Origin: a virus | Taxonomy: Duplodnaviria; Heunggongvirae; Uroviricota; Caudoviricetes | Length of the DNA stretch: 8,008 bases | IMG/VR virus record: IMGVR_UViG_2534682157_000011 | Coordinates: 1-8,008 of that record | Reading direction: 5' to 3' (one strand) | Shown: positions 3,893 through 6,429 of the stretch, piece after piece | Position numbering within the stretch: the first letter of the stretch is position 1 | Layout of the letters: every line of letters starts with the position of its first letter | Position numbers and translations under genes: made by a program | The notes under the pieces: generated by a model | Seen by the model: the letters and a program-made list of their open reading frames with translations, nothing else | What the model was told of the DNA's origin: nothing | Database searches by the model: none

Positions 3893-4176
3893 ATATTGAT
3901 TCTGCAATTCCGGGACGTTACACTGTTCAGGCACCTTATAAAACGGGTGCCGGGATTGGCGTCCTGAAATTGATTACTGAGCATAACCGCGCTCATGCGG
4001 TTTTTTCGTGTCATGAGCATTACTACGCCCAAATTATGGTGGGGCGTACAGGGCCGACTTCGGTCGGGCCGGGTTCGGTAGTCTCCGGTAACGCCAACCC
4101 TGTACGTCTCACCACCTCTGTGATTGGCGTCCCATGTGGTGAGTTTTCTAAAAAACTGACTACCGGGGCTGTCACT
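3893..4176 (+). promoter_or_regulatory. Conserved hairpin-rich leader upstream of rha copy 1 (candidate cis-regulatory RNA)
   Basis: Carries the elements described for copy 2, with a slightly weakened 5' double hairpin. Terminator-like AACCGC-GCTCAT-GCGGTT plus T-run at 3985-4006. Hairpin CCGAC-TTCG-GTCGG at 4054-4067. Stem CTCACCAC (4108-4115) / GTGGTGAG (4136-4143) with a loop sequence unlike copies 2 and 3. Confidence 0.4.
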
Positions 4177-4740
4177 ATGACTACTCTCCCAACCCTCTCT
4201 CAACCTGAAATTGCCATCGTTGATGGTCAGGCTGTTACATCTTCTTTGGCTGTTGCTGACTTTTTCTCTAAACGTCATGACGATGTTCTGAAAAAGATCC
4301 GCATTTTGGATTGTTCTCCAGAGTTTTGTGCCCGCAATTTTGCGGAGACATCAATTTTGGTACGCCAGCCCAACGGCGGTACTCGCAAACTACCTTGCTA
4401 TCAAATAACCCGCGACGGCTTTGCGTTTCTTGCTATGGGTTTCACGGGTAAACGTGCTGCCCGGTTCAAAGAGGCATACATCAATGCCTTTAACCAGATG
4501 GAGAAGAGTTTATCAGGTGCCGATGCGTCTGATATGTCAGCTGTCGCACGAAACGCCAGAGGCGTATACCTGCATTTGCGTGAAATCCATCAAATCTGGA
4601 CAAGCCAGCTTTATCCAATGCTTAAGGCTGTTGAATCTCCGCTGGCCAGCAAACTGTACGACCGTGTAGGTGATGCTGTTTTTGGTGCTGCACTTGTTGA
4701 TTCCAGGCTGAATGGTTCTGACAAGGAGGTTCGCCTATGA
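4177..4740 (+). CDS. Rha-family phage regulatory protein (antirepressor-like), copy 1
   Basis: Begins MTTLPTLSQPEIAIVDGQAVTSSLAVADFFSKRHDDVLKKIR and contains KLPCYQITRDGFAFLAMGFTGKRAARFKEAYINAFNQME, which matches the Rha-family core from memory. SD-like GGGG 8 nt upstream of ATG 4177. The track ORF 3718..4740 starts at a TTG far upstream and is treated as leader; the true start is uncertain. Confidence 0.8.
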   Translation: MTTLPTLSQPEIAIVDGQAVTSSLAVADFFSKRHDDVLKKIRILDCSPEFCARNFAETSILVRQPNGGTRKLPCYQITRDGFAFLAMGFTGKRAARFKEAYINAFNQMEKSLSGADASDMSAVARNARGVYLHLREIHQIWTSQLYPMLKAVESPLASKLYDRVGDAVFGAALVDSRLNGSDKEVRL

Positions 4741-5036
4741 TCCGCTACCTGAATATTGATTCTACAATTCCGGGACGTTACACTGTTCCGGCACCTTATA
4801 AAGCGGGTGCCGGGCGTGGAAACCCGGAATTCAATATAGAGCACAACCGCGCTCATGCGGTTTTTTCGTGTCATGAGCATCGTTACGCCCAAATTATGGT
4901 GGGGCGTGCAGGGCCAACTTCGGTTGGGCCGGGTTCTATGTTGACCGGTATTTCCACCCCTGTACGTCTCACCACCTATATGGTCGTGGAAAGCCTTGGT
5001 GGTGAGTTCATTGAATTCAACATAGGGGCTGTCACC
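4741..5036 (+). promoter_or_regulatory. Conserved hairpin-rich leader upstream of rha copy 2 (candidate cis-regulatory RNA)
   Basis: Outer stem AATTCCGGG (4766-4774) / CCCGGAATT (4823-4831) encloses inner stem CCGGCACC (4788-4795) / GGTGCCGG (4806-4813). Terminator-like AACCGC-GCTCAT-GCGGTT followed by a T-run (4845-4866). UUCG-tetraloop hairpin CCAAC-TTCG-GTTGG (4914-4927). Stem CTCACCACC (4968-4976) / GGTGGTGAG (4998-5006), ending ~30 nt before the rha ATG. Confidence 0.4.
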
Positions 5037-5588
5037 ATGACTACTCTCCCAACCCAATCTCACCCTGAAATCACGATTATCAATGGTCGTGTTGTCACCA
5101 CATCTCTTGCAGTTTCGAATTACTTTACTAAACGGCATGAGCGGGTTTTAGATAGAATTCGAAACCTCGAATGTTCCGCTGAATTTACTGAACACAATTT
5201 TGTGTTAAGTGAATACACCGACGCATCAGGCCGCAAACTTCCCTGCTATCAAATCACCCGCGACGGTTTTGCGTTTCTTGCCATGGGCTTCACTGGTAAA
5301 CGTGCTGCCCGGTTCAAAGAGGCATACATCAATGCCTTTAACCAGATGGAGAAGAGTTTATCAGGTGCCGATGCGTCTGATATGTCAGCTGTCGCACGAA
5401 ACGCCAGAGGCGTATACCTGCATTTGCGTGAAATCCATCAAATCTGGACAAGCCAGCTTTATCCAATGCTTAAGGCTGTTGAATCTCCGCTGGCCAGCAA
5501 ACTGTACGACCGTGTAGGTGATGCTGTTTTTGGTGCTGCACTTGTTGATTCCAGGCTGAATGGTTCTGACAAGGAGGTTCGCCTATGA
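5037..5588 (+). CDS. Rha-family phage regulatory protein (antirepressor-like), copy 2
   Basis: Begins MTTLPTQSHPEITIINGRVVTTSLAVSNYFTKRHERVLDRIR, with the same Rha core. Differences from copy 1 across the core are mostly synonymous or conservative, and the C-terminal ~98 codons are identical at nucleotide level. SD-like GGGG 8 nt upstream. The track ORF 4737..5588 is a longer in-frame reading through the leader. Confidence 0.8.
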   Translation: MTTLPTQSHPEITIINGRVVTTSLAVSNYFTKRHERVLDRIRNLECSAEFTEHNFVLSEYTDASGRKLPCYQITRDGFAFLAMGFTGKRAARFKEAYINAFNQMEKSLSGADASDMSAVARNARGVYLHLREIHQIWTSQLYPMLKAVESPLASKLYDRVGDAVFGAALVDSRLNGSDKEVRL

Positions 5589-5883
5589 TCCGCTACCTGA
5601 ATATTGATTCTACAATTCCGGGACGTTACACTGTTCCGGCACCTTATAAAGCGGGTGCCGGGCGTGGAAACCCGGAATTCACCAAAGCGCACAACCGCGC
5701 TCTTGCGGTTTTTTGTGTCATGAGCAGCATTACGCCCAAATTATGGTGGGGCGTGCAGGGCCAACTTCGGTTGGGCCGGGTTCTTTGGTGACCGGTATTT
5801 CCACCCCTGTACGTCTCACCACCAATAAGGTCGTGGAAAGCCTTGGTGGTGAGTTATTAAAAATCACCAAAGAGGCTGCCATC
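5589..5883 (+). promoter_or_regulatory. Conserved hairpin-rich leader upstream of rha copy 3 (candidate cis-regulatory RNA)
   Basis: 5' double hairpin identical to copy 2. Terminator-like hairpin keeps its stem with a changed loop (AACCGC-GCTCTT-GCGGTT plus T-run, 5693-5714). UUCG hairpin at 5761-5774. A 1-nt deletion relative to copy 2 right after the T6 tract breaks the long reading frame but leaves every hairpin intact. Confidence 0.4.
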
Positions 5884-6429
5884 ATGGCTACGATCCCAAC
5901 CCTCACTCAACCTGAAATTGCCATCGTTGATGGTCAGGCTGTTACTTCATCCCTGGCTGTTGCCAACTTCTTCTCCAAACGTCATGACGATGTACTGAAA
6001 AAGATCCGCACGCTTGAATGTTCCGCATCATTCACTGCCCGCAATTTTTCGGTGAGTGATTACACCGATTGCACAGGCCGCAAACTACCTTGCTATCAAA
6101 TAACCCGCGACGGCTTTGCGTTTCTTGCTATGGGTTTCACGGGTAAACGTGCTGCCCGGTTCAAAGAGGCATACATCAATGCCTTTAACCAGATGGAGAA
6201 ACAGCTTTCAAAGCCCGCTGTACCGAGCGACGTTGCACATAACGCCAGCGTTCTCTGTTCCTACATTTCATCAATTCATCAGGTCTGGCTGCAGCAGCTT
6301 TATCCTATGTTGGCAAAAGCCGAATCTCCGCTGGCTGTTAGCTTATATGACTATATTAATGATGCTTCGGCGCTGGCCTGCCTCATAAATTTGTCGCTGA
6401 ACCCTTCAGAGGCAAGGGGGCGCAAATGA
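5884..6429 (+). CDS. Rha-family phage regulatory protein (antirepressor-like), copy 3, with a diverged C-terminus
   Basis: Begins MATIPTLTQPEIAIVDGQAVTSSLAVANFFSKRHDDVLKKIR with the same Rha core. After NAFNQMEK the C-terminal ~75 residues differ from copies 1 and 2. SD GAGG 8 nt upstream of ATG 5884. Stop overlaps the next ORF start (ATGA at 6426-6429). Confidence 0.8.
   Translation: MATIPTLTQPEIAIVDGQAVTSSLAVANFFSKRHDDVLKKIRTLECSASFTARNFSVSDYTDCTGRKLPCYQITRDGFAFLAMGFTGKRAARFKEAYINAFNQMEKQLSKPAVPSDVAHNASVLCSYISSIHQVWLQQLYPMLAKAESPLAVSLYDYINDASALACLINLSLNPSEARGRK

Follow-up and report, generated by a model that had tools for sequence, protein, structure and literature searches.

A probable stack of three IsrK/C4 riboregulatory cassettes behind an apparent triplication of the Rha gene in a lambdoid prophage

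The immI module of phage P1 and the isrK locus of Salmonella Gifsy-1 are the closest described systems to the three tandem units, each ending in a Rha gene, which were analyzed here at positions 3887-6429 of an 8,008-nucleotide stretch of viral DNA (Caudoviricetes; positions 1 to 8,008 of IMG/VR record IMGVR_UViG_2534682157_000011); this whole stretch is called the window. In P1 the b′ loop and the 3′ junction a′ of the c4 RNA pair with the targets a2/b2 around a ribosome-binding site, a further copy of the targets (a1/b1) lies upstream, and a few base differences in these addresses lead to the heteroimmunity of P1 and P7 (PMC5320573, PMC12197685, PMC8198154). In Gifsy-1 the downstream gene is transcribed from the isrK promoter, but no translation takes place on the long transcript; short IsrK given in trans activates translation more than 100-fold, with G28 and G31 of IsrK pairing with C162 and C159 of the downstream RNA (PMC4825925).

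Some further systems share single features with this locus. In the immunity of satellite phage P4 (CI RNA with seqA/seqB/seqC; compared from the literature only) a processed small RNA (sRNA) pairs with sites upstream and downstream on the same transcript, and it acts by premature transcription termination of the replication genes; the Gifsy-1 authors cite P4 CI as a structural homologue of IsrK (PMC4825925). Acinetobacter baumannii has many C4-family RNAs per genome with varied a′/b′ and processing at a GGW site (PMC5320573), but these are not described there as tandem, whereas the copies in the window are tandem and each has cis targets and cargo. The Rha domain (PF09669; phi80/P22-type rha; 'Rha/Ash' of Stx Eru6/7/9 phages) is present in three copies in the window, where the 'Ash' part coincides with the RNA leader; in the literature the function of Ash is unknown and the Rha/Ash proteins of Stx Eru6/7/9 phages are treated as single proteins (PMC8951638). 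No description of tandem or multiplexed C4/IsrK cassettes with separate addresses was met in the searchable literature, where absence is not proof.

The three units of about 850 bp are placed head to tail and start at about 3887, 4747 and 5595 (spacing 860 and 848 nt), and a Phage_pRha (PF09669) gene forms the 3′ end of each. The first-pass annotation of this DNA spoke of leaders, and Rfam identifies an IsrK-like sRNA and a C4 antisense RNA in each of them. The leader of about 290 nt is no plain untranslated region; it carries, in every unit, a promoter-like site, an IsrK-type sRNA with its terminator and a C4 antisense RNA, and is probably the functional centre of the unit. We consider it probable that the region 3887-6429 represents three complete riboregulatory cassettes of the P1 immI / Gifsy-1 isrK kind, each with its own addresses, stacked by recombination of alleles; the apparent gene triplication would then be three copies of an RNA switch.

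Both Rfam models (gathering scores 50 for isrK, RF01394, and 45 for C4, RF01695) match in all three units in register with the repeat, and the C4 matches are full-length, i.e. model positions 1-87 of 87, in all three copies. Minimum free energy folds of C4 have the expected three-helix shape with an outer stem and two hairpins (unit 1, -47.7 kcal/mol), and in 3 of 3 copies the outer stem has the motif AU/GGU at its 5′ end. The features of the three units are given below; the promoters of all three are readings of the sequence.

3896-3924, plus strand: unit 1 putative sigma-70 promoter TTGATT-N17-TACACT, 7 nt before the IsrK-like 5′ end
3931-4007, plus strand: unit 1 IsrK-like sRNA, RF01394 60.1 bits; terminator stem 3985-4002 and U run
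about 3955-3962 and about 3971-3981, plus strand: unit 1 targets in IsrK, a1 and b1 respectively, placed by complementarity
4032-4119, plus strand: unit 1 C4 antisense RNA, RF01695 82.3 bits
4073-4084 and 4090-4097, plus strand: unit 1 b′ loop GUUCGGUAGUCU and a′ AACGCCAA
4123-4130 and 4158-4168, plus strand: unit 1 downstream targets a2 AUUGGCGU and b2 GACUACCGGGG
4177-4740, plus strand: Rha gene 1, 187 aa; N-terminal type 1, invariant core, C-terminal X; Phage_pRha 3.1e-27 over residues 21-110; phrog_821
4756-4784, plus strand: unit 2 putative promoter TTGATT-N17-TACACT
4791-4867, plus strand: unit 2 IsrK-like sRNA, RF01394 62.0 bits; terminator 4845-4862; carries a1 and b1
4892-4979, plus strand: unit 2 C4 antisense RNA, RF01695 82.4 bits
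4933-4944 and 4950-4957, plus strand: unit 2 b′ loop GUUCUAUGUUGA and a′ AUUUCCAC
4986-4992 and 5017-5028, plus strand: unit 2 targets a2 GUGGAAA and b2 UCAACAUAGGGG, the latter over the Shine-Dalgarno sequence
5037-5588, plus strand: Rha gene 2, 183 aa; N-terminal type 2, core, C-terminal X (identical to gene 1); Pfam 2.2e-30
5604-5632, plus strand: unit 3 putative promoter TTGATT-N17-TACACT
5639-5715, plus strand: unit 3 IsrK-like sRNA, RF01394 61.5 bits; terminator 5693-5710; carries a1 and b1
5739-5826, plus strand: unit 3 C4 antisense RNA, RF01695 83.6 bits
5780-5791 and 5797-5804, plus strand: unit 3 b′ loop GUUCUUUGGUGA and a′ AUUUCCAC (the a′ of unit 2)
5833-5839 and 5864-5875, plus strand: unit 3 targets a2 GUGGAAA and b2 UCACCAAAGAGG, the latter over the Shine-Dalgarno sequence
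5884-6429, plus strand: Rha gene 3, 181 aa; N-terminal type 3, core, C-terminal Y; Pfam 7.7e-31; phrog_821 4.5e-122

The promoter sequence, which stands 7 nt before the IsrK-like start in every unit, is conserved throughout the array as well as in relatives from E. coli and Citrobacter, and the U run of the unit 3 IsrK is 1 nt shorter than those of units 1 and 2. The Rha start codons (4177, 5037 and 5884) each stand behind a Shine-Dalgarno sequence GGGG or GAGG, and the b2 of unit 1 overlaps its GGGG, 9 nt upstream of the ATG. The three proteins score 95.4, 105.5 and 107 bits with Phage_pRha against a Pfam gathering score of 29.9.

The sharpest differences between the copies are in the RNA pairing sequences, which covary with their targets. 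In every unit the isrK element contains b1, and b2 extends as far as the Shine-Dalgarno sequence. Two a′ types are present in the window, and unit 1 is distinct from units 2 and 3 in both a′ and b′. The b′ loops of units 2 and 3 differ only at 5785 and 5788, with a compensating change in b1 and another in b2 for each of these positions, so that these two units provide a natural test of how few nucleotides make antisense regulators independent (two loop positions, each compensated twice). The cognate b′-b1 duplexes of units 1, 2 and 3 have -15.4, -15.3 and -14.8 kcal/mol and the b′-b2 duplexes, of 10-12 bp and ending in the Shine-Dalgarno sequence, have -17.6, -14.9 and -17.6 kcal/mol, while non-cognate b′ duplexes between the window units reach only -4.4 to -7.9 kcal/mol (-4.9 to -7.9 against the unit 1 downstream set). 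The cognate a′-a1 duplexes have -10.6 to -12.1 kcal/mol (unit 1, -12.1), and the a′-a2 duplexes, of 7 bp, have -10.6 in unit 1 and -9.1 kcal/mol in unit 2.

For comparison of the pairing, cassettes were extracted from 152 related loci and duplexes were scored in windows of homologous position; a search across the entire target regions gave spurious non-cognate pairings and was replaced by these windows. There are 21 distinct (b′, a′) types which follow the same cognate rule in E. coli, Citrobacter, Serratia, Edwardsiella, Symbiopectobacterium and others, with cognate means of -14.5 (b1) and -15.5 kcal/mol (b2) against -7.2 and -7.4 kcal/mol for non-cognate pairs, and 0 of 10,000 permutations of the pairing reach the observed mean (p <= 1e-4). 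As the pairing sequences are distinct and matched, each C4/IsrK pair should act chiefly on the Rha gene of its own unit. A ready-made set of candidate orthogonal riboregulators is formed by the address types, at least 21 in number, whose targets match.

The layout of the window can be placed beside both known modules. Like the c4-icd-ant1/ant2 genes of P1/P7 immI, it has a same-family C4 upstream of, and on the same strand as, the controlled gene, together with a1/b1 and a2/b2 pairs; but P1 has one module on a plasmid prophage, whereas the window has three in a lambdoid early-right operon, between the cII-like gene and the replication genes. The a2/b2 of P1 lie over the ribosome-binding site of icd and ant is expressed by coupling, while those of the window lie directly on the ribosome-binding site of Rha with no separate icd. 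The P1 cargo is the Ant1/Ant2 antirepressor behind a C1-controlled promoter; the cargo in the window is a Phage_pRha protein and there is no cI operator near the cassette promoters.

The order isrK-orf45 (STnc1160)-anrP of Gifsy-1, where isrK has its own promoter and a terminator that leaks and is followed by a C4-family RNA and then by the gene of a regulator, is the order of the window, whose promoters are putative. The start AUG of orf45 is the conserved AUG at the 5′ end of the window C4, and the positions G28/G31 and C162/C159 correspond to a1 and a′ in the window. The differences are that Gifsy-1 has one copy beside the Q antiterminator with an unrelated cargo (AnrP, ORF6N), that its orf45 is a separate open reading frame (ORF) coupled to anrP while this frame is fused to Rha in the window, and that STnc1160 is not treated as a C4 repressor in the published model.

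From these two systems a mechanism may be proposed for each cassette. Read-through of the IsrK terminator would produce C4, which would be cut out by RNase P at the conserved AU/GGU. This C4 would pair with a2/b2 and block the translation of Rha, and the short IsrK-like RNA would offer a1/b1 as a competing partner by which the block is relieved. Thus C4 would be the repressor of its own Rha gene and the IsrK-like RNA its specific antagonist, with the balance between the two set by terminator read-through, and the Rha protein made after relief would act as an antirepressor or lysis-lysogeny regulator. This role is suggested by the position behind C4 and by the weaker PHROG similarity of the Rha N-terminal domain to the Ant families phrog_63 and phrog_373 (E 1e-16 to 1e-31). 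A sequence search of the PDB with the Rha proteins of the window gave no match at E <= 1, and the predicted structure was too poor a model to interpret.

Several points weigh against the proposed switch and must be set beside it. The mechanism is carried over from P1 and Gifsy-1. The Rfam c4-a1b1 model (RF03163) reaches only 21.7-25.6 bits against a gathering score of 46.7, so the a1/b1 assignment rests on direct complementarity. The putative promoter is a consensus-level call with 8 of 12 positions, where the threshold of the scanner is 9. No separate ORF of icd or orf45 type lies between C4 and Rha in the three units, so the details of translational control may differ from the P1 and Gifsy-1 models. 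The Rha proteins have no sequence similarity to AnrP of Gifsy-1; homology of the two had been considered and was rejected (BLASTP E 2.2; Pfam domains ORF6N and Phage_pRha, respectively). Control of unit 1 may be fully separate, while cross-talk of units 2 and 3 is possible, as their a′ is common and their b′ differ at two positions only. Lastly, triple-Rha arrays were found only in the window and in one related assembly, and such rarity is as compatible with a transient by-product as with a state under selection.

The variants of the window circulate singly in other E. coli prophages, from which it follows that the array was assembled from existing alleles. For the stretch specific to unit 1 (4060-4390), 53 complete E. 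coli genomes have a counterpart at >=99% identity, and for that specific to unit 2 (4920-5240) 112 have one at >=95%, while the unit 3 type is the commonest single-copy form in IMG/VR. Three of these loci were fetched and each has a single cassette of the type in question: L150 has one unit 1 cassette in the same prophage context as the window, and L151 and L152 have one unit 2 cassette each, in a different prophage, along with short 'ash'-type cassettes. The flanking prophage is 96-99.5% identical to single-unit relatives.

Related loci contain 1, 2 or 3 cassettes, so the suggestion of the first-pass annotation that the copy number is variable was borne out. At least one related cassette is present in 3335 of 5426 complete E. 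coli genomes, at up to 6 places per genome; two Rha units are present in 4 of the 5426 and three in none. The two-unit arrays are L001 [3][2], L002 (EH53) [1][2], L003 [3][1] and one in a further genome. Derivation of the EH53 array from the window array by deletion was rejected, its second unit having a different a′ (TTTCTCAC) and a variant C-terminus. The exact junction ATGATCCGCTACCTGAATATTGATTC is found in 17 IMG/VR stretches, all of which have 2-3 cassettes unless the contig is truncated; the same search gave 0 among GTDB representative genomes and 0 in JGI metagenome contigs. Two cassettes are also present in a Symbiopectobacterium genome.

A second kind of array joins isrK-C4 cassettes with a short cargo, a Rha-domain protein of 120 aa, in tandem to full-length Rha cassettes (L151, L152 and L154-L170). 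The array of L151 has three cassettes in the order ash-ash-Rha (1566-3669), its two short cargoes being named 'ash family' by PGAP, and that of L152 has two (2216-3669). By annotation pattern and match geometry the ash + Rha tandem is present in about 110 of the 5426 genomes, many of them ST131, with C4 checked in two loci (L151 and L152). The earlier statement that Rha is usually single-copy is therefore true with respect to Rha-Rha-Rha arrays and fails for C4 cassettes with a short Rha-domain cargo beside Rha, which are not rare. Stacks of 2-3 cassettes thus occur in many E. coli prophages, including relatives of Stx phages and a lineage with many ST131 genomes, and they bear on prophage induction, cross-talk between co-resident prophages and superinfection immunity.

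In L001, L002, L003 and the window the non-terminal units have C-terminal X and the junction, and the terminal unit has Y followed by the phrog_1153 gene; the C-terminal type follows the position in the array whatever the N-terminal type. According to this rule recombination runs from conserved core to conserved core and not from promoter to stop codon, and what is exchanged is a block of b1, C4, a2/b2 and the N-terminal part of Rha. Reassortment is also seen between addresses and N-terminal types, type 3 being found with at least 5 addresses. A likely recombination substrate is the following segment, which spans the end of the Rha core, C-terminal X, the SD-ATGA junction (SD, Shine-Dalgarno), the promoter and the 5′ part of IsrK.

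4447-4833, plus strand: constant inter-unit segment of 387 nt, repeated exactly at 5295-5681 (identical tracts added together)

Stacking from alleles leaves the use of the multiplicity to be judged, and two views of it were weighed. The first accepts the anatomy and regards the multiplicity as functionless, a neutral and short-lived recombination by-product of co-resident lambdoid prophages which deletion will collapse; this is a real possibility to which we give somewhat less than an even chance. The rarity of Rha-Rha arrays, the varying unit order and the abundance of recombination partners given above speak for it, as does the third cassette of L004, an independent assembly of the array (IMG/VR UViG_2778261590_000001), where b′ mismatches b2 (-5.5 kcal/mol) as expected without selection. 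On the other hand, the window cassettes keep their promoters, terminators, C4 folds, b1/b′/b2 triplets and open Rha genes. The (b′, a′) pairs of neighbours differ in all but one (L004 = L159) of about 25 arrays examined, and the ash + Rha two-cassette array appears fixed in its lineage of about 110 genomes, although none of this is proof of selection.

The second view, which we hold only tentatively and as less likely than the first, is that tandem arrays are a selected form of multiplexed RNA addressing, with C4 immunity in trans for each phage class and IsrK as its trigger, shuffled Rha proteins that target different repressors, an open leader through which upstream transcripts bypass RNA control, and Ash as translated RNA. 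If this were true, each C4 would guard in trans against incoming or co-resident phages with the same address, lytic-phase transcripts would escape the RNA control which prophage-phase transcripts from the internal promoter obey, and the Pfam/PGAP 'Ash' family would be a translated non-coding RNA leader. The locus would in either case be a multiplexed form of a known riboregulatory module.

Another explanation is that one Rha gene was duplicated twice in place, the copies diverged, patches were later converted and the leaders are ordinary 5′ untranslated regions. The head-to-tail layout, the common junction and the long identical tracts are in agreement with it; these tracts are of 298 nt between units 1 and 2 (4447-4744 = 5295-5592), 122 nt between units 1 and 3 (4384-4505 = 6079-6200) and 87 nt between units 2 and 3 (4747-4833 = 5595-5681). 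A conversion-like patch, by which L004 is distinguished from the window, agrees with it as well. Between units, Rha residues 1-69 have a synonymous divergence (dS) of 0.55-1.74 and a ratio of non-synonymous to synonymous divergence (dN/dS) of 0.2-0.4, core residues 70-110 have 0 non-synonymous and 1-8 synonymous differences, and the C-terminus is identical in units 1 and 2 and at dS 1.8 between unit 3 and both. Identical tracts of 87-298 nt next to synonymously saturated segments cannot, on these sequences, be ascribed to chance. What makes duplication in place improbable is that the N- and C-terminal dS is saturated (1.3-1.8) while the flanks are near-identical to those of single-unit relatives, that the unit 1 and unit 2 segments are at home in the 53 and 112 genomes with one cassette of the type in the fetched loci, that the same units stand in other orders elsewhere, that each unit nests among single-copy alleles and that the leaders contain Rfam-grade RNAs.

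Most of what the first-pass annotation had read from the window about the mosaic was confirmed by these calculations: the long identical tracts lie where it had placed them, the divergent N-termini and the synonymously changed core agree with dS and dN/dS per segment, and recombination between units is seen in the mosaic tracts and in the L004 patch, which exchanges unit 3 leader for unit 2 sequence. The variable Rha N-terminus may, as that annotation proposed, set the specificity of the proteins. Its view of the copies as local paralogues diverged in place was not upheld, given the distribution of the unit 1 and unit 2 segments in other genomes. The comparisons show an array which did not arise by local duplication and divergence and was stacked from existing alleles by homologous recombination, with the exchanges in conserved segments (the Rha core, C-terminal X and the junction, the promoter/IsrK 5′ end and the C4 stems).

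The long ORFs could also be the real genes, i.e. 'Ash-Rha' fusions of 280-340 aa as given by PGAP, PHROGs and Pfam, to which the RNA matches are secondary; we rate this as unlikely. Of 71 distinct leaders, 64 are indeed free of stop codons in the reading frame of Rha, against 12 and 0 for the two remaining frames, and the AUG at the C4 5′ end leads in frame into Rha in each window unit and in 19 of the 21 address types, including cases with frame-preserving indels. Units 2 and 3 open with the Shine-Dalgarno sequence AAGGAGG, followed after 7 nt by an ATG that overlaps the preceding stop codon. The Pfam family PF10554 'Ash' (Phage_ASH) matches residues 15-111 of the long ORF 4737-5585, which are the translated isrK + C4 leader; its hidden Markov model gives 34-61 bits on the translated leader against a gathering score of 26, with matches at 4779-5070 and 3919-4207 in the window and at 1554-1830 in L151. 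Most Rha database entries have 280-297 aa, and these, PGAP 'ash family' and phrog_821 take in the translated leader.

The variation of the leader is of another kind than expected for such a fusion. There is no excess of third-position variability in the leader (0.66/0.69/0.69 by codon position, against 0.45/0.37/0.87 in Rha), its dN/dS of 0.79 is near-neutral against 0.17 in the Rha N-terminus, and its differences are concentrated in a1/b1/b′/a′/a2/b2 and covary as RNA pairs. The U run of unit 3 brings a frameshift, an internal Shine-Dalgarno sequence and ATG are conserved at the Rha start, the ATG of the long ORF comes before both the promoter and the start of IsrK, and in Gifsy-1 the same leader precedes an unrelated cargo. 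The stretch matched by Ash coincides with isrK + C4 and does not behave as a domain under amino-acid constraint. The pattern indicates a leader that evolves as RNA, and the Ash family seems to be the translation of a leader made of non-coding RNA. There appears to be avoidance of stop codons with no constraint on the amino acids, which suggests ribosome transit and not a protein domain; such transit may be real and selected, and on transcripts from upstream it may override the terminator and the C4 fold. The RefSeq records examined carry no annotation of the IsrK/C4 RNAs, and some 100 residues of translated IsrK/C4 seem to be part of Pfam Ash, of phrog_821 and of many database entries of 280-297 aa under the names 'Rha family', 'ash family' or 'peptidase'.

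That a single or double cassette was expanded by mis-assembly of reads from several prophages is very improbable, because, although the 387-nt exact repeat is longer than short reads, a related assembly (L005) breaks its contig within the repeat (starting at window 5605) and the swap of unit 2 and unit 3 leader in L004 could be a chimera, the three distinct variable blocks and unique flanks allow only the linear path 1-2-3, the b1/b′/b2 triplet is consistent in each window unit where a chimera tends to break it, as in L004, and complete genomes have two-unit arrays with the same junction and the three-cassette array of L151. The claim that the three diverged Rha copies are real and not an assembly duplicate is thus sustained by the three blocks and by L004, which has the same three-unit array at 99.82% identity over 6066 nt. 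Apart from one indel, L004 departs from the window only in a patch at 5682-5788 (L004 3798-3905), in which the b1, terminator loop, U run and b′ of unit 3 are turned into unit 2 sequence, so that the b2 of its third Rha gene is matched by no resident C4. Either the patch is a real gene-conversion tract, which would leave the cassette derepressed, or the assembler joined different units across the 387-nt repeat into a chimera.

As a whole, the window covers the immunity and early-right region of a prophage which is lambdoid and of the type of CPS-53/KpLE1 or mEp460. Its gene order is the same in the closest annotated relatives, and near-identical single-copy Rha genes are present at the same position in mEp460, Stx2a phages, cdtI and ST64B. 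The neighbouring genes are as follows.

1981-2673, minus strand: cI-like repressor, helix-turn-helix (HTH) and Peptidase_S24
2771-3031: cro-like gene
3024-3575: cII-like gene, Phage_CP76, RefSeq name 'YmfL'
3720-3899: DUF4222 gene, directly before the array
6426-6650: phrog_1153 gene, after the array and joined to Rha gene 3 by an ATGA overlap
6647-7465: replication-initiator-like HTH/DnaD_N gene
7462-7956: PerC-family gene

Operator-like palindromes TTGCGYGA-N13-TCRCGCAA are found in the cI-cro intergenic region (2694-2722 and 2728-2756). In a search of the whole window this cI operator motif occurs at these two places only and none is near the cassette promoters, so direct cI control like that of P1 Op51 is unsupported, and the cassette promoters may be active in the lysogen. 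A tRNA/tmRNA scan of the window gave no match.

The stop codon of the DUF4222 gene (3897-3899) falls within the -35 hexamer of the unit 1 promoter (3896-3901), and in units 2 and 3 the equivalent position follows the SD-ATGA junction from the preceding Rha gene. On the way from the early-right promoter region to the replication genes, three intrinsic terminators (3985-4002, 4845-4862 and 5693-5710) follow one another; as early transcripts have to get past each of them, the array may in addition adjust the expression of the replication genes, like a tripled tR1. Iteron-like direct repeats of 21-45 nt, GTGCAGGAG(A/T)T(T/G)CAC..., lie at 6912-7040 inside the replication-initiator-like gene and are probably the origin, and 12 nt at 7049-7060 are missing from the related assembly L005.

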